A stretch of 32,000 bases of DNA from an uncultured Alphaproteobacteria bacterium (lineage in GTDB: Bacteria > Pseudomonadota > Alphaproteobacteria > Rs-D84 > CACZYB01): the NCBI GenBank assembly GCA_934246625.1, contig CAKQHZ010000002.1:180001-212000 (forward strand). Reading direction: 5' to 3'. Below are positions 18,492 through 22,714 of the stretch, in pieces (the stretch's first letter is position 1; every line of letters begins with the position of its first letter). The notes under the pieces were generated by a model. The model saw only the letters and a list, made by a program, of their open reading frames with translations, was not told the origin of the DNA and did no database searches. Both the position numbers and the translations under genes were made by a program.

Positions 18492-20294
18492 ATGTTAGAT
18501 TTGAAAAAAAATGATGTGATGTCTGTGTATTATGATAATTCAAAGTATAATTTGTCATCAATACTTCTTCCATTTAAGGGAATGATAAGACGTATTTTTG
18601 GACTTTCATTTTTAATAAATGTTTTAAGTGTTTTGATACCTTTGTGTATTATGTATTTGATTGATGGAAAGTTTAATTTATCACTTGATTCAAATGGACT
18701 TTTTAACATTGTGTTTTTGACATCTGTGCTTGGGTTTAACTTTTTATTTCGTTATATTCGTGCGGGTATGATAAATTATGTTTTGTTAAATATTGATAAT
18801 AATATTTGCAAAAATATTTTGGATAAGGTTTTTAAATTACCAGCAAGGAAAATGGAAAAAAAGAAAGAAGCCTTTTGGACAACTTTGTTTGCGGATATTG
18901 ATGTTATTCGAAATGGTCTTTCTGGTTCCTATATTGTGAATATTACAGATATTCCTTTTGTGCTTTTGTTTATTGGTGTGATTGGAATTTTGCTTGGTAA
19001 ATATTTCTTTGTCATTCTTTTATTTTTACTTATGTATGCAATTTTTATTATGTTTGCATCTTATGTTTTGGGAATTGTTGATGATAAGGAAAAAATGGCG
19101 ATAAAGGAACGTGATGAACTTATATCTGGGTCAATACATAATCTTTCATCGTTGAAAACTTTGTCTTTGACAGACAAGGTTATGAATATGTGGCATGATT
19201 ATCAAAAAAGTATAGTTGATATTACATACAAAAGAAATTATACCTTGGATATTTGTTTGGTGTTGAATTATGTTATTTTCTTTTTGGGATTGATTGTATT
19301 TTCTTTGATTGGTGTTTATGCAGTTAATTTGCATATTATGAGTATTGGAACTTTGGTTGCTGTGCTTTTACTTTTTACTTTGAATTTTTATTTGATTAAC
19401 AGCTTTTTAAAATATCTTCCTCAATATTTTAAATTTATCAATTCTATTGAACGTTTAAGTCAAGTTATGGCGGAACAAGTTGATGCCCTTAAAACCGAAG
19501 AGGTGGAGGATATTACTCTTGGTAATTTGGAACTTAAAAATGTGGTGTTGGAAGATAGTTTGAAAAACATTATTTTAAAAGATGTTAACTTTACCTTTAA
19601 AGAAGGAAGTGTTTATGTTGTGCGTGGTAAGAATACTTTTGATACATCTTTATTTTTAAAAAGTTTGATTGGTGCATATGATATTTCAAATGGTGAAATA
19701 CTTTTTGACAGATATGATGTTGCGAACCTTAAGGCTGAAAGTCTTAAAAACTATATACACTATCTTGGGGTAAATTATTTTATCATTGAAGGAACGGTGA
19801 AAGAAAATTTGAATTGCTTTTTGAATGAAAGCGATACTTCCTTTGCTGGATTTGTTGATTATAAAAAGGTTGCGAAAATGTTCGGCCTTGATGAAATAAT
19901 TGCAAAACTTCCAAATGGATATAATACGATTATTGATAGTAAAACAGATTTGTTGACACAGGAGGAAATGAAACTTTTGAGTATTGCTCGTGTGTTTGTT
20001 GGTAATCCAAAGGTTATGATTTTTGACCAACCATTTTTAGGACTTAGAAAAATTTATAAGGAAAAGTTGATAAAGGCGTTTGCCGAATTTTCTTCTGATA
20101 AAATTATTATTGTTTCAACAACGGAAAAGGATATTGGAAAACGTAAAGTTATTAACATTGAAAATGAAAAAATTACAATGTTGACTTCTGATACTTTTGA
20201 TGAGGCTTTGATGGATATAAATGCCAAAATCGAAGAAGAAGATGCAACAGAAAATCGTGCATTGTTTAGACGAATTTTTAGGAAGAAAGACTGA
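18492..20294 (+). CDS. ABC exporter-like protein (type I TMD + NBD) with degenerate ATPase motifs
   Basis: 600 aa. The N-terminal six-TM exporter-type domain resembles T1SS PrtD/HlyB-type permeases (FLINVLSVLIPLCIMYLID). In the C-terminal NBD, Walker A reads VRGKNTFDTS (19620-19649), the signature reads LTQEE (19953-19967), Walker B reads VMIFDQP (D-Q at 20025-20030) and the H-loop reads VSTTEK. Confidence 0.8.
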   Translation: MLDLKKNDVMSVYYDNSKYNLSSILLPFKGMIRRIFGLSFLINVLSVLIPLCIMYLIDGKFNLSLDSNGLFNIVFLTSVLGFNFLFRYIRAGMINYVLLNIDNNICKNILDKVFKLPARKMEKKKEAFWTTLFADIDVIRNGLSGSYIVNITDIPFVLLFIGVIGILLGKYFFVILLFLLMYAIFIMFASYVLGIVDDKEKMAIKERDELISGSIHNLSSLKTLSLTDKVMNMWHDYQKSIVDITYKRNYTLDICLVLNYVIFFLGLIVFSLIGVYAVNLHIMSIGTLVAVLLLFTLNFYLINSFLKYLPQYFKFINSIERLSQVMAEQVDALKTEEVEDITLGNLELKNVVLEDSLKNIILKDVNFTFKEGSVYVVRGKNTFDTSLFLKSLIGAYDISNGEILFDRYDVANLKAESLKNYIHYLGVNYFIIEGTVKENLNCFLNESDTSFAGFVDYKKVAKMFGLDEIIAKLPNGYNTIIDSKTDLLTQEEMKLLSIARVFVGNPKVMIFDQPFLGLRKIYKEKLIKAFAEFSSDKIIIVSTTEKDIGKRKVINIENEKITMLTSDTFDEALMDINAKIEEEDATENRALFRRIFRKKD

Positions 20295-20947
20295 TGAAAA
20301 AAAATATTTTAATATCTGCAAGTTTAACATCAACTGATTATTTTGATATAGAAAAAACTATTGCTTTGGTAAATAGCTCTTCTGTGGATAGGATTCATTT
20401 TGATGTTATGGACGGTGTATTTGTGCCAAATATTACCTATGGTCCAGATTTTATTTCATCGGTTAAATTACACACAAAAAAATTTTTTGATGTGCATCTT
20501 ATGATTATCAATCCTTTGTCCTATATTGAAAGATTTGTTGATGCTGGTGCAGATTTGATAAGCGTGCATATTGAGGCAAAAAATACTATGAAGTCGATAA
20601 AACTTATTAAATCTTTTGGTGTGAAGGCAGGGATTGTTATCAATCCAAAGACCAGTTATAAAAAGGTTTTGAAGTATTTGGATTTTGTTGATGAAGTTAT
20701 GGTGATGAGTGTTGAACCTGGGTTTGGTGGGCAAAAATTTATTGTTGATGTTGTGCCAAAAATTCAAAAAATTTCACAAATTATAAAAAGTAAAGGTAAA
20801 AAAATTTTGTTGCAAGTTGATGGTGGAATCAATTTTGAAACGGGTAAACTTGTTATTGATAGTGGTGTTAATTCTTTGGTTGTTGGAAGTTTTTTATTTA
20901 ATCAAAAAAATTTTGATAAAACAGTTCTTAAATTAAAAAGTTTATAA
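20294..20947 (+). CDS. rpe: ribulose-phosphate 3-epimerase
   Basis: Motifs HFDVMDGVFVPNIT, DVHLM, MSVEPGFGGQKF and VDGGIN. The start overlaps the upstream stop (TGATG). Confidence 0.93.
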   Translation: MKKNILISASLTSTDYFDIEKTIALVNSSSVDRIHFDVMDGVFVPNITYGPDFISSVKLHTKKFFDVHLMIINPLSYIERFVDAGADLISVHIEAKNTMKSIKLIKSFGVKAGIVINPKTSYKKVLKYLDFVDEVMVMSVEPGFGGQKFIVDVVPKIQKISQIIKSKGKKILLQVDGGINFETGKLVIDSGVNSLVVGSFLFNQKNFDKTVLKLKSL

Positions 20948-20959
20948 TCTATATTTTTA

Positions 20960-20988
20960 TTTACAAAAATTTAATTATGTATTAAGAT
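20960..20988 (+). promoter_or_regulatory. candidate sigma70-type promoter (TTTACA-17 nt-TAAGAT)
   Basis: The -35 TTTACA is at 20960-20965, followed by a 17-nt spacer and the -10 TAAGAT at 20983-20988, just after the rpe stop. This would start a transcript near 20995, about 220 nt upstream of the first Cys-rich gene. Confidence 0.35.
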
Positions 20989-20995
20989 GAAATTA

Positions 20996-21212
20996 GGTTT
21001 GGAAGTTATTCTGAACTTAGTGTCCTTAATGGATACGGGATTGTCGAAGGTCCTTTATAGTCTGCGTATAACGCAATGTTATATGGTAAATGCCCCCGCC
21101 TTTAGTGGGGAGCCCTTGATGTATGTTCAGAGGATATATCTTTATGTCCTTAAAGATCTTGTGGAATCATTTCAGACTATATGATTTTCGAACTCCCCGC
21201 CGTTAAGGATAA
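20996..21212 (+). ncRNA. candidate structured 5' leader / cis-regulatory RNA (unclassified)
   Basis: GC-rich blocks sit in an AT-rich background. A local hairpin spans 21092-21113. A 9-bp long-range pairing joins 21056-21064 to 21173-21181. An alternative 8-bp helix joins 21105-21112 to 21193-21200. TGTCCTTAA occurs at both 21021-21029 and 21145-21153, and each copy is complementary to the SD region TTAAGGA at 21203-21209. Confidence 0.3.
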
Positions 21213-21629
21213 ATGGGAAAAATTTTTGTGTTTTTGCACAAAATAAAGGGGAAAAAGAACATGAACAAGAAGTTATCAATATTGGTATCTACATTTTTAT
21301 GTGTAGCGTTATCATCTAATGTAAAATCAGAAACATTAATAGAGTCATTACAAAGGTATTGTGTGCCAACTGCTGAAGTTTGCGGAACTGTGGCAAGGGC
21401 AACATACAACACATCGGAAAGTGCTTGCGAGTGTTCGGCTTGCGGAATGTATTATGATAAAACTTCCAGAAGTTGTCAGACTTGTCCAGAGGGAACTTAT
21501 GTGAACAACAGATACTCCACAGAGTGCATAAGGCCAGATTGTGGCATAGGCAATTATGGAGTTGTTGAAACTGGCAAAACCGATTGTGGAATAGGATTTT
21601 ACAAAGTAGCTTTATCCAGTTGTAAATAG
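21213..21629 (+). CDS. secreted cysteine-rich protein (CxxCPxGTY / DCGIGxY modules), unknown family
   Basis: The signal peptide (MNKKLSILVSTFLCVALSS) is preceded by a short MGK... extension. The alternative start ATG 21261 has SD AAAGGGG. The roughly 100-aa mature part has 11 Cys, with SCQTCPEGTYV and a duplicated DCGIG(N/F)Y. GC content is visibly higher than in neighbouring genes. Confidence 0.7.
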   Translation: MGKIFVFLHKIKGKKNMNKKLSILVSTFLCVALSSNVKSETLIESLQRYCVPTAEVCGTVARATYNTSESACECSACGMYYDKTSRSCQTCPEGTYVNNRYSTECIRPDCGIGNYGVVETGKTDCGIGFYKVALSSCK

Positions 21630-21636
21630 GAGATAT

Positions 21637-21677
21637 GGGAGGAGGTATTTTCTTATGGTTTTTGCTTCCTCCCTCCC
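21637..21677 (+). other. GC-rich hairpin sequestering an SD-like GGAGGAGG
   Basis: GGGAGGAGG (21637-21645) pairs with CCTCC(C)TCCC (21668-21677) across a 22-nt loop that contains ATG 21655. No U-tract follows on either strand, so it is not a canonical terminator. Confidence 0.5.
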
Positions 21678-21711
21678 AAAAGATAAGATGAGGTGTTTAA
21701 TGAGAAAAAGA

Positions 21712-21776
21712 GTCAGCACAAAAGTACGAAGTGCAACGGTAGCCCTAAAGGGACGGAGGGCAGTTGCTTTGCTGAC
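21712..21776 (+). ncRNA. candidate structured RNA element: three coaxial helices (7+5+5 bp)
   Basis: GTCAGCA (21712-21718) pairs with TGCTGAC (21770-21776). GCAAC (21733-21737) pairs with GTTGC (21763-21767). GCCCT (21742-21746) pairs with AGGGC (21757-21761). The internal loops are asymmetric, and the element is about 50% GC in an AT-rich background. Confidence 0.3.
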
Positions 21777-21849
21777 ATACTAAACCCTTAAAGAAAAATA
21801 AGAAAAATGGAGAAATAATGGAAAAGTTTTTAAAACTAGAACCTTATAA

Positions 21850-21910
21850 GAGCACACCCCGCAAGGGGGGGTAAGGGGTGTGCTCGGTAAAATTGATGTA
21901 TCAATTTTAC
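21850..21910 (+). other. twin perfect hairpins (11-bp GC-rich followed by 10-bp AT-rich)
   Basis: GAGCACACCCC (21850-21860) pairs with GGGGTGTGCTC (21875-21885); an inner alternative is CCCC-GCAA-GGGG. One nucleotide later, GTAAAATTGA (21887-21896) pairs with TCAATTTTAC (21901-21910) across a TGTA loop. No U-tract follows. Confidence 0.5.
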
Positions 21911-21964
21911 ATACATTAAAATTAAAAACTAATATTAACAAACTAAACTGAAAGGTAAAATAAA

Positions 21965-22684
21965 ATGGGAAAAATGAAAAATATGAACTTATTGTTGGTA
22001 ATGACAACTTTGCCAATGACTGCAAAAGCCGATCTTTTTAAATGTATGGCTTGTACTAATAAACCTGCTAACGCTCACTATACATCCGGCGGAACCAATA
22101 CCTCCAATTGCTCTTGGTCTTGCGATAGCGGATATACTAAAAATGATAATTTATGCTGTGCAAATAAACCTGATAATTCTTATTATTACTCCAATAATTG
22201 TGGTTGGAATTGTAATAGCGGGTATGCATCTTGTAATAGTCGTTGTATTAAAGATGAAAGAATTGCGAATTCATCATACAATTCAAGTTGTGAGCTAGAA
22301 TGTAATAAAGGATATAAACCTGTTTATACAACAACTGGTGGAGGTTGTTCATTTACTGTGAAGACTTTATCTGAGTGTAAAGTTGATCCTTGGGTTCACT
22401 GTGCGACAACAGCTAATGCTATATATATTCAATTTACTCATACTACTGAATATGGTGAATCATGTGCTAGCTCACAAAGAAAATATTATTCTGCGGGAAC
22501 TTCATTTAATCCTGTTTTTAGAAGTTGGGAAAAAGGTAGGTGTGCTTATGTGATGTTTAGAATATATAAAACATCAGATCAAACACTTTTAAAAACAGTA
22601 TCAGTCAGCGTTTTCAAGACACAATTTGATTATGACCAAAGATATATTTATTGTGATGGAAAACTTCAAAAATATACTGAATAA
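21965..22684 (+). CDS. secreted cysteine-rich repeat protein (3x C-x-[WL]-x-C-[DN]-x-G-Y modules), unknown family
   Basis: Short signal peptide (MKNMNLLLVMTTLPMTAKA) and 18 Cys. Three tandem modules between 22052 and 22315 read CTNKPANAHYTSGGTNTSNCSWSCDSGY, CANKPDNSYYYSNNCGWNCNSGY and CIKDERIANSSYNSSCELECNKGY. The first codons (ATGGGAAAAAT...AAYATGAAC...TTGGTA) are shared with the upstream Cys-rich gene. Confidence 0.72.
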   Translation: MGKMKNMNLLLVMTTLPMTAKADLFKCMACTNKPANAHYTSGGTNTSNCSWSCDSGYTKNDNLCCANKPDNSYYYSNNCGWNCNSGYASCNSRCIKDERIANSSYNSSCELECNKGYKPVYTTTGGGCSFTVKTLSECKVDPWVHCATTANAIYIQFTHTTEYGESCASSQRKYYSAGTSFNPVFRSWEKGRCAYVMFRIYKTSDQTLLKTVSVSVFKTQFDYDQRYIYCDGKLQKYTE

Positions 22685-22689
22685 AAAAG

Positions 22690-22714
22690 AAAAGGGGTTT
22701 TGCCCCTTTTTTTT
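22690..22714. terminator. bidirectional intrinsic terminator between convergent genes
   Basis: AAAAGGGG (22690-22697), loop TTTTG, CCCCTTTT (22703-22710), with an A-run upstream and a T-run downstream. It sits between the stop of the Cys-rich gene (22684) and the stop of epmA (22713). Confidence 0.8.

Follow-up and report, generated by a model that had tools for sequence, protein, structure and literature searches.

The spacer between two neighbouring genes, A and B (positions 21630-21964 of the window, by which is meant the whole 32,000-nt stretch of DNA that was analysed), is a mosaic rather than one regulatory RNA: it consists of the stem of the gene A terminator and, after it, small hairpin-forming insertions, one of them with a G-run of strain-dependent length. 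The anatomy of this strain-variable, layered leader linking gene A to gene B can be given with good confidence, and the explanation that best accounts for the whole, a leader built up in layers by insertion and coupled to gene B in a phase-variable manner, is advanced tentatively. The locus is an accessory island encoding two fast-changing secreted Cys-rich proteins, the products of genes A and B. Its host belongs to an uncultured AT-rich alphaproteobacterial lineage of the gut or rumen. The spacer was compared across 11 near-identical assemblies and 1 related species, and the features are located in Table 1.

Table 1. Positions in the window of the spacer features and of the start of gene B
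Feature	Position	Strand	Description
Hairpin 1	21637-21677	+	11 pairs, 21637-21647/21663-21673, then CCCTCCC tail to 21677
Accessory block	21678-21930	.	about 253 nt; missing from the 75-nt short allele
Shine-Dalgarno sequence (SD) and 27-codon ORF	21690-21783	+	SD GAGGTG 21690-21695, ATG 21700, stop 21781-21783 (sequence, fold)
uORF	21809-21874	+	SD GGAG 21809-21812, ATG 21818; 18 codons with 7 G (window), TAA 21872-21874
Direct repeat 1	21830-21838	.	TTAAAACTA, left of the two-hairpin unit
Two-hairpin unit	21839-21915	+	77 nt; hairpin 3 (21850-21885) and hairpin 4 (21887-21910), between 9-nt direct repeats
Poly-G tract	21865-21871	+	in the hairpin 3 loop; hypermutable
Direct repeat 2	21916-21924	.	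TTAAAATTA in the window, TTAAAACTA in other strains; indel point of the 127-nt module
uORF stop and gene B start	21949-21967	+	TGA 21949-21951 (8-G strains) overlaps weak SD AAAGG 21951-21955; ATG 21965

An initial annotation of this DNA had placed four hairpins and two mini-ORFs in the spacer, and all of them were recovered from the sequence at the same positions and exceed what chance would produce. The minimum free energy (MFE) fold contains all four hairpins, which are mutually unrelated in sequence; the fold energy is -81.2 kcal/mol on the + strand (z = -2.9) and -77.4 kcal/mol on the - strand (z = -4.5), and the sub-block 21690-21915 folds with z = -3.5. The description of the spacer as GC-rich is right locally, with a peak over the hairpins, but not overall, where 100-nt windows across the spacer range from 0.19 to 0.43 GC against a window average of 0.32. 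Pairs of an SD and an ATG number 2-3 per 335 nt in the spacer, compared with about 0.08 expected from the roughly 15 non-gene pairs counted by eye in 64 kb on both strands. The 42-aa ORF (21655-21783) has the coordinates assigned to it, but its ATG at 21655 is lost in five assemblies (L002, L019, L021, L027 and L028); its internal start at 21700, preceded by GAGGTG, recurs in every strain that carries the accessory block, with the motif in the weaker form GAAGTG in two of them. The 27-codon ORF that begins there encloses the 65-nt three-helix element GTCAGCA...TGCTGAC (21712-21776), in which the strain substitutions, at 21741, 21750 and 21754 (n=3), all fall at positions unpaired in the MFE fold, a pattern that is not significant. 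No homolog of the 27-codon ORF was found outside this species, and the peptide sequences of the uORF and the mini-ORFs are not conserved between species.

The mosaic character of the spacer is apparent from its length, which takes three allelic values (75, about 335-345 and about 462-473 nt) among strains that are about 99% identical in the flanks. In a global alignment of L021 with the window, L021 has just GTTTTATT between CCCTCCC and TATTAACAAAC, and the reading of the spacer as a single element fails because hairpin 1 persists, with covariation, in this short allele from which hairpins 2-4 are missing. Hairpin 1 starts 8 nt past the stop codon of gene A, with its left arm GGGAGGAGG at 21637-21645 and the ATG at 21655 in its loop, and four distinct variants of its sequence retain it, with A-U, C-G and U-G at one pair and several G-U changes elsewhere; 93% of cells are paired in these variants, compared with 57-70% in slid controls. 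In the short allele (L019, L021) the CCCTCCC of hairpin 1 is followed by GTTTTATTTATT, which completes a canonical intrinsic terminator with gene B directly after it, whereas in the window AAAAGATAAG follows the stem and no such terminator is formed. Hairpin 1 is accordingly the stem of the intrinsic terminator of gene A, the U-tract of which has been replaced in the window by the accessory block; this displacement probably lets transcription of gene A run on into gene B. The earlier observation that the hairpins lack U-tracts and are not ordinary terminators agrees with a terminator scan of 21630-21964 on both strands of the window, which returned 0 sites.

A first insertion is the two-hairpin unit. 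Hairpin 3 has a perfect 11-bp stem, GAGCACACCCC/GGGGTGTGCTC, around the 14-nt loop GCAAGGGGGGGTAA; neither the 32-kb window nor about 52 kb of this genome holds another perfect stem that has 7 bp or more and a GC content of 60% or more. Hairpin 4 is likewise perfect, the palindrome being GTAAAATTGAT/ATCAATTTTAC. The 9-nt direct repeats on either side of the unit are TTAAAACTA and TTAAAA(T/C)TA. Removal in silico of the unit and one repeat leaves a 15-codon uORF, MEKFLKLKTNINKLN and a stop, that ends on the SD of gene B, and with 8 G the unit amounts to 87 nt, exactly 29 codons, in frame in the uORF. The direct repeats are AT-rich, and an allele without the module could just as well have lost it by deletion between repeats that were already there. 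A copy of the unit occurs in the related species L005 at a non-orthologous intergenic site, where the 47 nt of 21848-21894, which take in hairpin 3 and the first arm of hairpin 4, match at 97.9% identity and the longer stretch 21848-21919 matches at 89%; in this copy a compensatory change in hairpin 4 from G-C to T-A leaves the palindrome perfect. On the + strand, the C-to-T changes seen in L020 turn pairs at the foot of hairpins 3 and 4 into G-U.

These observations suggest that the hairpins may be the palindromes of small non-autonomous insertion elements resembling MITEs or Rickettsia palindromic elements (RPEs). A target-site duplication of the kind that marks MITEs is present around both the 77-nt unit and a further, 127-nt module; the unit stands at two non-orthologous loci across two species, and strains differ in whether they carry the 127-nt module. 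The 77-nt unit shows no terminal inverted repeats, and the genes called in 52 kb include no transposase or recombinase gene and no RAYT (IS200/IS605-like) transposase Pfam domain. The extra copy at an unrelated L005 locus would also be expected if the hairpins belonged to a REP-like, high-copy dispersed repeat, an outcome that the initial annotation had named as fatal to its proposal and that is half borne out: in a related species the unit does recur, at a locus unrelated to the present one, but the L005 copy is the only one found outside this locus. Within about 52 kb of this genome the unit has no second copy and no further perfect hairpin is GC-rich, one locus standing against the many copies that define REP and BIME elements; the unit is absent from about 100 kb of seven related MAG loci (L003, L004, L006-L010); and no two of the four hairpins are related in sequence. 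A REP-like identity is therefore extremely unlikely.

The 127-nt module provides a second insertion. It is present in half the strains (L018, L022, L023, L027 and L028), at direct repeat 2, is flanked on each side by ATTAAAACTA, the same direct repeat as that of the 77-nt unit, and contains an SD, AAAGGAGGAG, a GTG mini-ORF and a GC hairpin; its terminal inverted repeats are just a weak AT-rich 10-nt pair. Its whole length has a homolog in a module that precedes the epmA-adjacent Cys-rich gene of L005 (local alignment score 40, compared with 23.3 +/- 3.4 for shuffles, 0/300 of which scored as high). The orthologous module that is called module a in L005 has lost the G-run, and its homology with the 5' flank of the L005-x copy is likewise above chance (score 45; shuffles 19.3 +/- 2.7, 0/500). 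Because these homologies exceed the shuffles, the succession of an SD, a mini-ORF and a GC palindrome, twice ahead of the gene, can be taken as common to the two species, which share the architecture in diverged sequence and whose EpmA proteins are only 80% identical. The presence of the module in L005 suggests that the long form of the spacer may be ancestral. Two further candidate homologies were discarded: that between the 127-nt module and the block of the window is not significant (128/300), and a 5' similarity between the window block and the L005 copy, TTAATGrGAAAA...TCAGCAC, was dropped when 67/300 dinucleotide shuffles scored as high.

The uORF in which the unit sits ends, in the window, in the loop of hairpin 3; the initial annotation had reported this as an 18-aa ORF at 21818-21874, and its coordinates are right. 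Its SD, GGAGAAATAATG, is typical of the lineage and its frame enters hairpin 3, so that the remodelling of this hairpin by translation, as had been proposed, is plausible. Where the ribosome would stop depends on the G-run in the loop, which differs among assemblies about 98-99% identical in the flanks, with lengths of 6 (L028), 7 (the window, which is L026), 8 (L001, L020, L022, L023 and L029) and 9 (L002 and L018), as read from metagenome consensus assemblies in which homopolymer errors are possible. With 8 G, the modal state and the sole length that keeps the frame, the uORF encodes 44 aa and ends at the TGA at 21949-21951; with 6 or 9 G it ends at a TAA just past hairpin 3. Among close strains, then, homopolymer length differs as in contingency loci, and it determines in which frame the uORF continues and where it stops; expression of gene B would be affected only by way of the proposed coupling.

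The tract is the sole run of at least 7 G or C in about 52 kb of this genome. In relatives, poly-G tracts lie in the signal peptide of an orthologous Cys-rich gene, with 8 G in frame in L003 and 9 G, frameshifted, in L004, which has also a C9 tract in the spacer of a TTGACA...TAAAAT promoter; these are classical positions for phase variation. A role of the present G-run as a promoter spacer was considered and rejected, no -35/-10 pair being visible around the tract by eye.

In L027 the loop of hairpin 3 is inverted to TTCCCCCCCCTTGC between perfect 11-bp arms that are kept, which is what would be seen if hairpin 3 were an inverton, that is, a site-specific switch flipped by a recombinase. This is the least probable of the identities considered: at 14 nt the segment is too short for a promoter to fit in it or for an invertase to bend it, so that the promoter-bearing segment characteristic of invertons is missing, no recombinase gene is found in 52 kb, and inversion of the loop is expected in short hairpins from template switching during replication (PMC8794818). 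DNA-level processes of this kind, template switching and slippage, would keep the stems perfect yet unstable.

The proposed coupling would work as follows. Slippage in the G-run would shift the site at which uORF ribosomes stop. With 8 G, these ribosomes would unwind hairpins 3 and 4 and terminate on the weak SD of gene B, 13 nt before its ATG (the gap measured in L020 and L029), and so favour its translation; with 6, 7 or 9 G they would halt in or just past hairpin 3. Expression of gene B would thus be phase-variable, in a lineage that uses poly-G in this way at other Cys-rich genes. Such a phase-variable coupling is suggested by the arrangement of the sequence but must be called doubtful. 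It could operate only in the medium allele, because in the long allele (n=5 strains) the 127-nt module places a stop immediately past direct repeat 2 and bars the uORF from the gene B SD at any G length.

The same SD-led short ORF, with its stop codon in the loop of hairpin 3 and a structured region directly upstream of gene B, could be read instead as a classical leader-peptide attenuator, or as a single riboswitch-like leader for gene B. The suggestion of leader-peptide control in the initial annotation was of this kind, and it is sound as far as the existence of SD-led ORFs but fails for want of a U-tract terminator and of any pairing with the gene B SD. No hairpin is followed by a U-tract; the gene B SD is unpaired in the predicted fold and enters no alternative pairing, and classical attenuation is unlikely because no predicted structure sequesters it. 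Moreover, the position of the stop moves with G length between strains, the content of the modular spacer varies, and gene B of the short allele is driven from a plain SD without a leader. An attenuator or riboswitch-like leader is thus highly improbable.

More weight must be given to the possibility that the anatomy is as described here but without function, the spacer being the debris of insertions, selfish or neutral, in an island prone to recombination, in which poly-G slippage and loop inversion are inherent instability and the SD-led mini-ORFs remain from the 5' ends of genes. This account, which is quite possible though less than probable, explains readily why the accessory block and the 127-nt module are each present or absent among near-identical strains, so that none is required, why the peptides are not conserved, why the uORF coupling is broken in the long allele, and why, in the strain comparison, gene B alleles are exchanged independently of spacer alleles. 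It explains less readily that an SD, mini-ORF and GC-palindrome architecture also precedes the ortholog in the L005 species, in spite of the divergence of EpmA, that the modal 8-G state is the in-frame state, and that G-runs of at least 7 are nearly absent otherwise in this genome and stand at classical phase-variation sites in relatives.

A more far-reaching version of the layered, phase-variable leader is improbable on present evidence but can be stated precisely. The palindromic segment of about 77 nt, with its hypermutable loop G-run, would be a portable cassette which, inserted in frame in an SD-led uORF, acts as a mobile plug-in module for phase variation via translational coupling, and selection for such a relay would account for the architecture in L005. 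Whether ribosomes melt both hairpins and reach the downstream start would then be decided by loop inversion and by slippage of the G-run within the range 6-9. Coupling via such a cassette would differ from control by the gene's own reading frame or promoter.

The near identity of the two-hairpin unit at different loci in two species, with covariation in hairpin 4, is also compatible with an independent small-RNA gene, made up either of the block or of hairpins 3 and 4 plus the sequence that flanks them upstream, in which the hairpins form the structured 3' end; the significant fold agrees with this, and the substitutions that create G-U pairs fit a + strand RNA. Such a gene is nonetheless very unlikely. 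A scan for an upstream promoter gave none that was convincing, the hairpins have no U-tract, the similarity of the 5' flanks of the two copies does not rise above the shuffles already cited, and the unit lies between direct repeats, in frame in a uORF, and is found neither in the short allele nor in seven other relatives. The comparison with known RNA families that the initial annotation had called for yields no family, whether of riboswitches, sRNAs, leaders, tmRNA, 6S, SRP or group II introns: Rfam gave 0 matches at the gathering threshold over the whole window, and in E-value mode over 21400-22200, up to E = 10, it gave chance matches to eukaryotic snoRNAs and miRNAs alone, far below gathering. 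ARAGORN found no tRNA or tmRNA.

Searches in other sequence collections were similarly negative. The exact pattern GAGCACACCCCGCAAGGGG had 6 matches in JGI metagenome contigs, all by chance in unrelated GC-rich contexts without the hairpin, and an exact-pattern scan of viral contigs had 0. A six-frame composite translation of the spacer had no match at E <= 10 among 5.8 billion proteins, so the spacer cannot be recognised as a pseudogene, nor has any ORF across it been called elsewhere. Three other identities were rejected: domain V of a group II intron, suggested by a GAGC start and GNRA loop, has the wrong geometry and no Rfam Intron_gpII match; the GTTRRRY core of an integron attC site is not seen on reading the sequence; and, as regards the target hairpin of a DGR, the genes called in 52 kb contain no reverse-transcriptase domain and the variation is not confined to adenines.

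The locus offers a lesson for annotation: a hairpin-dense spacer with the appearance of a riboswitch or small RNA can consist of small insertion elements stacked on a terminator, and comparison at the level of strains quickly resolves such cases. It also points to a contingency-locus lifestyle, with poly-G tracts, allele-swapping Cys-rich secreted proteins and indel-polymorphic leaders. If the coupling is true, a uORF switch that depends on poly-G would add to the routes to phase variation one that is transferable.

The spacer can be compared with several known systems. Hairpin 1 resembles intrinsic (Rho-independent) terminators in its GC-rich stem of 10-11 bp, to which the short allele adds GUUUUAUUUAUU; in the window, unlike such terminators, its U-tract is displaced by the accessory block, and hairpins 2-4 are never accompanied by one. 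Homopolymeric-tract contingency loci, in which slipped-strand mispairing produces phase variation, are familiar from Campylobacter, Neisseria, Haemophilus and Helicobacter. The present G-run resembles them in that it varies from 6 to 9 among near-identical strains and adjoins the gene for a hypervariable secreted or surface protein, and in that the poly-G tracts of relatives lie in a signal-peptide coding region and a promoter spacer. It differs from them in its position in an intergenic hairpin loop within a uORF, outside both the reading frame and the -35/-10 spacing of gene B, on which its effect would be indirect.

A variable G-repeat in an mRNA leader is known to control expression in the tlpB leader of Helicobacter pylori, where the repeat is targeted by the sRNA RepG and its length tunes expression post-transcriptionally (PMC8295292). 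Both repeats vary in length in the 5' leader of a surface-related gene, and comparable tuning may occur at gene B; here, by contrast, no partner sRNA is identified, the repeat lies in a hairpin loop within a predicted uORF, and the organism and gene family are unrelated. Template switching creates and maintains perfect hairpins (PMC8794818), and hairpin 3, with its 11-bp arms kept and its 14-nt loop reverse-complemented in one strain, and hairpin 4, with its compensatory changes, resemble its products, although the inversion here is a single event and the mechanism is putative.

The closest parallels to the modules are MITEs, RPEs, Correia elements and ERIC (PMC10969869). The 77-nt unit differs from these in having no terminal inverted repeats, both modules have a very low copy number in the available sequence and no visible parent IS element or transposase, and the host ORF is a 15-codon uORF rather than a protein gene. 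The modules share with these elements their short length (77 and 127 nt), hairpin formation, bracketing by direct repeats, variability among strains and one copy at a non-orthologous site in another species. MITEs and RPEs insert in frame, and the hairpins of MITEs affect transcripts (PMC10969869); correspondingly, the unit in its 8-G form is an in-frame insertion in an ORF, as is typical of RPEs, and the modules stand shortly ahead of a gene, a position from which the hairpins of MITEs are known to act on transcripts.

The hairpins and the two short ORFs which the initial annotation described in the spacer (21630-21964) between gene A and gene B, two genes for Cys-rich secreted proteins, are all found at the coordinates it gave when the sequence is read directly, and the minimum-free-energy fold of the spacer, which has an energy of -81.2 kcal/mol (z = -2.9) on the + strand and -77.4 kcal/mol (z = -4.5) on the - strand, includes all four hairpins. 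The clustering of hairpins in the spacer is far above chance, because the 32-kb window, when scanned for perfect stems (7 bp or longer, 60% GC or higher), yields hairpin 3 alone, and ~52 kb of the same genome yields no further such stem; the reading of the hairpins as a high-copy REP is disfavoured. The earlier description of the spacer as GC-rich holds locally and does not hold for the spacer overall. A terminator scan of the spacer detected no terminator-like site on either strand, in agreement with the earlier view that the structures in the window are not ordinary terminators, and an explanation in terms of a classical attenuator is disfavoured. The search of Rfam that had been proposed yielded no match at gathering thresholds and only chance matches at E <= 10, and ARAGORN produced no match; the interpretation of the spacer as an independent sRNA is likewise disfavoured.

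Features of the gene A-gene B spacer and its surroundings (window positions)
Feature	Position	Description	Basis
rpe	20294-20947	upstream; the next 265 nt are GC-richer	
gene A	21213-21629	signal peptide, Cys-rich	
hairpin 1	21637-21677	ATG 21655 within loop	sequence reading
42-aa ORF	21655-21783		ORF call
65-nt multi-helix element	21712-21776		sequence reading
18-aa ORF	21818-21874		ORF call
hairpin 3	21850-21885	perfect 11-bp GC-rich stem, loop GCAAGGGGGGGTAA	
hairpin 4	21887-21910	perfect 10-11-bp AT-rich stem, starting two nt past the end of hairpin 3	
gene B	21965-22684	signal peptide, Cys-rich	
epmA and rplY		downstream of gene B, minus strand	

Eleven same-species assemblies with flanks ~98-99% identical were gathered by exact-protein and homolog look-ups (loci L001, L002, L018-L023 and L026-L029). 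The spacer measures 75 nt in the short allele (L019, L021), about 335-345 nt in the medium allele (the window, L026, L020, L029) and about 462-473 nt in the long allele (L018, L022, L023, L027, L028). Comparison of these strains shows a mosaic, composed of the terminator stem of gene A, nested strain-variable hairpin modules between copies of one shared direct repeat, and a G-run that is hypermutable and lies in an invertible loop, so that the original reading of the spacer as a single regulatory element stands only in part. The short allele contains, of the hairpins, hairpin 1 only, followed by GTTTTATTTATT, a Shine-Dalgarno sequence (SD; GGAG) and a gene B of diverged sequence, an arrangement which is a textbook terminator and ribosome-binding site. 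Hairpin 1 belongs to gene A, because the short allele retains it alone and because its stem pairing is kept in the four sequence versions found among strains. One pair is A-U, C-G or U-G by strain, three pairs alternate between Watson-Crick and G-U, and 93% of the alignment cells are paired compared to 57-70% in slid controls; the covariation that had been named as a check on the structures is thus seen at hairpin 1, and its wobble pairs fit + strand RNA. In the window, a block of roughly 253 nt (21678-21930) displaces the U-tract of hairpin 1, and with this tract gone, transcripts of gene A likely extend into gene B. ATG 21655 is missing in L002, L019, L021, L027 and L028, and is not a real start for the 42-aa ORF. 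L028 also has a 9-nt deletion (AAGAAAAAT) at 21791-21799, between short repeats upstream of the SD of the upstream ORF (uORF), another slippage polymorphism in the same leader.

A blastn search against relatives, all of them MAGs of uncultured Alphaproteobacteria from gut and rumen, matches 21848-21919 with 89% identity to a non-orthologous intergenic site in L005, a related species whose EpmA is 80% identical. The L005 copy lies between a 146-aa gene and a 192-aa gene, and hairpin 3 with the first arm of hairpin 4 is 97.9% identical over 47 nt. Hairpin 3 differs there in one loop base alone, and hairpin 4, with a loop one base longer, carries a compensatory G-C to T-A change, which extends the covariation to this stem. 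Homology farther 5' of this copy was considered and dropped, the similarity being no better than that of shuffles. The 77-nt unit of hairpins 3 and 4 (21839-21915) is flanked in the window by TTAAAACTA (21830-21838) and TTAAAATTA (21916-21924), the second repeat being TTAAAACTA in other strains. Deletion of the unit and one repeat in silico restores a 15-codon ORF, MEKFLKLKTNINKLN, which starts at ATG 21818 after a lineage-typical SD (GGAGAAATAATG) and stops at TGA 21949-21951, overlapping the weak SD of gene B 13 nt ahead of the gene B ATG. With 8 G, unit and one repeat together span 87 nt, or exactly 29 codons, which makes the unit an in-frame insertion into this uORF. Three diverged copies share one frame into GCACACCC, their ATG-to-hairpin distances being 34, 37 and 40 nt, and their peptides differ. 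Pairs of SD and ATG are rare by chance: an estimate made by eye from the list gives ~0.08 expected per 335 nt, against two to three observed. A second direct-repeat pair, ACATACTAAAC and ACAAACTAAAC at 21775-21785 and 21938-21948, 163 nt apart, brackets the uORF and the two-hairpin unit, a hint that the block contains an additional duplicated or inserted layer.

The G-run in the hairpin-3 loop, the sole G or C run of at least 7 in ~52 kb, has 6 G in L028, 7 in the window (which equals L026), 8 in L001, L020, L022, L023 and L029, and 9 in L002 and L018. In L027 the entire loop is reverse-complemented to TTCCCCCCCCTTGC with the arms intact; a recombinase-driven inverton is disfavoured as the explanation. 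In L020, C-to-T changes give G-U pairing at the base of each of these two stems, hairpin 3 and hairpin 4. The uORF stops inside the hairpin-3 loop with 7 G, so that the stop first described for the 18-aa ORF is correct for the window and elsewhere depends on G length: with 6 or 9 G it lies just past hairpin 3, and with 8 G on the gene B SD (medium alleles) or where a second module begins (long alleles). Ribosomes translating the uORF would likely pass hairpins 3 and 4 to the gene B SD depending on G length, and this would count as a kind of phase variation. However, this coupling step fails in long alleles, and the orthologous L005 module has lost the G-run; that the modules are neutral insertion debris with no function is nearly as likely. 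Other poly-G/C runs in relatives occupy classical phase-variation or contingency-locus positions: L003:1738 (G8) is in frame in the signal-peptide coding region of an orthologous Cys-rich gene, L004:5600 (G9) is in the same region, frameshifted to an early stop, and L004:4206 (C9) is in a TTGACA...TAAAAT promoter spacer upstream of another gene. The short metagenome contigs L001 and L002, which are independent of each other and named in different styles, both end at the base equivalent to window 21878, four nt inside the 3' arm of hairpin 3 and just past the G-run, and several relatives' MAG contigs likewise end within or beside the Cys-rich gene, which suggests population heterogeneity or sequencing failure there.

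Long alleles have 127 extra nt at the second direct repeat, with ATTAAAACTA on both sides; they hold a mini-ORF that starts with GTG, its SD (AAAGGAGGAG) and a further GC hairpin. Homology of this module extends over its entire length to a module b upstream of the epmA-adjacent Cys-rich gene of L005 (local alignment score 40, compared to 23.3 +/- 3.4 for shuffled sequences, 0/300 as high). Just upstream of b, module a, with a degenerate hairpin 3 and no G-run, shows homology to the sequence on the 5' side of the unit's copy in L005 (45 compared to 19.3 +/- 2.7, 0/500 as high). A layout of SD, mini-ORF and GC palindrome, occurring twice ahead of this gene, is thus common to two species. Either the window derives from an ancestral long form, whose second module it lost by deletion between repeats, or modules recurrently insert at this target.

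The whole block 20948-22712, from the leader through gene A and the spacer to gene B, is an accessory island, because rpe directly adjoins epmA in three relatives (L006, L008 and L010; EpmA 70-73% identical). In L003, L004, L005 and L009, closer or similarly distant MAGs, the contig breaks within or just before the epmA-adjacent Cys-rich gene. The sole Pfam match of genes A and B is a sub-threshold Ephrin_rec_like on gene A. Strains with 99% identical flanks show swaps in parts of gene A and in the C-terminal two-thirds of gene B, which is either 236-239 aa or 281-296 aa long depending on the strain; judged from L018, L019 and L021, this pattern resembles the replacement of alleles at a locus for variable secreted proteins. 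The stretch from the rpe stop to the gene A start (20948-21212) is strongly structured on the + strand (-85.8 kcal/mol, z = -7.2) and more weakly on the - strand (-55.5, z = -3.1), has no Rfam match, and is assigned a 65-aa ORF by gene callers. It is ~99% identical even in L019 and L021, despite a gene A that is only 56% identical there, and of the 7 substitutions that strains carry at positions predicted to pair, 5 preserve pairing (four G-U to A-U, one C-G to U-G). This candidate 5' leader or ncRNA for gene A is possibly of more interest than the gene A-gene B spacer.

The modules are inferred to be small non-autonomous palindromic insertion elements, whose perfect stems may be preserved through DNA-level template switching (PMC8794818). 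There is a modest chance that the locus would represent a new, portable uORF-based phase-variation device. Its components, small palindromic insertions and a simple-sequence contingency tract, are both of known kinds: the spacer modules are like MITEs or RPEs (PMC10969869), and the proposed G-dependent uORF bears a loose analogy to the G-repeat of variable length in the leader of H. pylori tlpB (PMC8295292).
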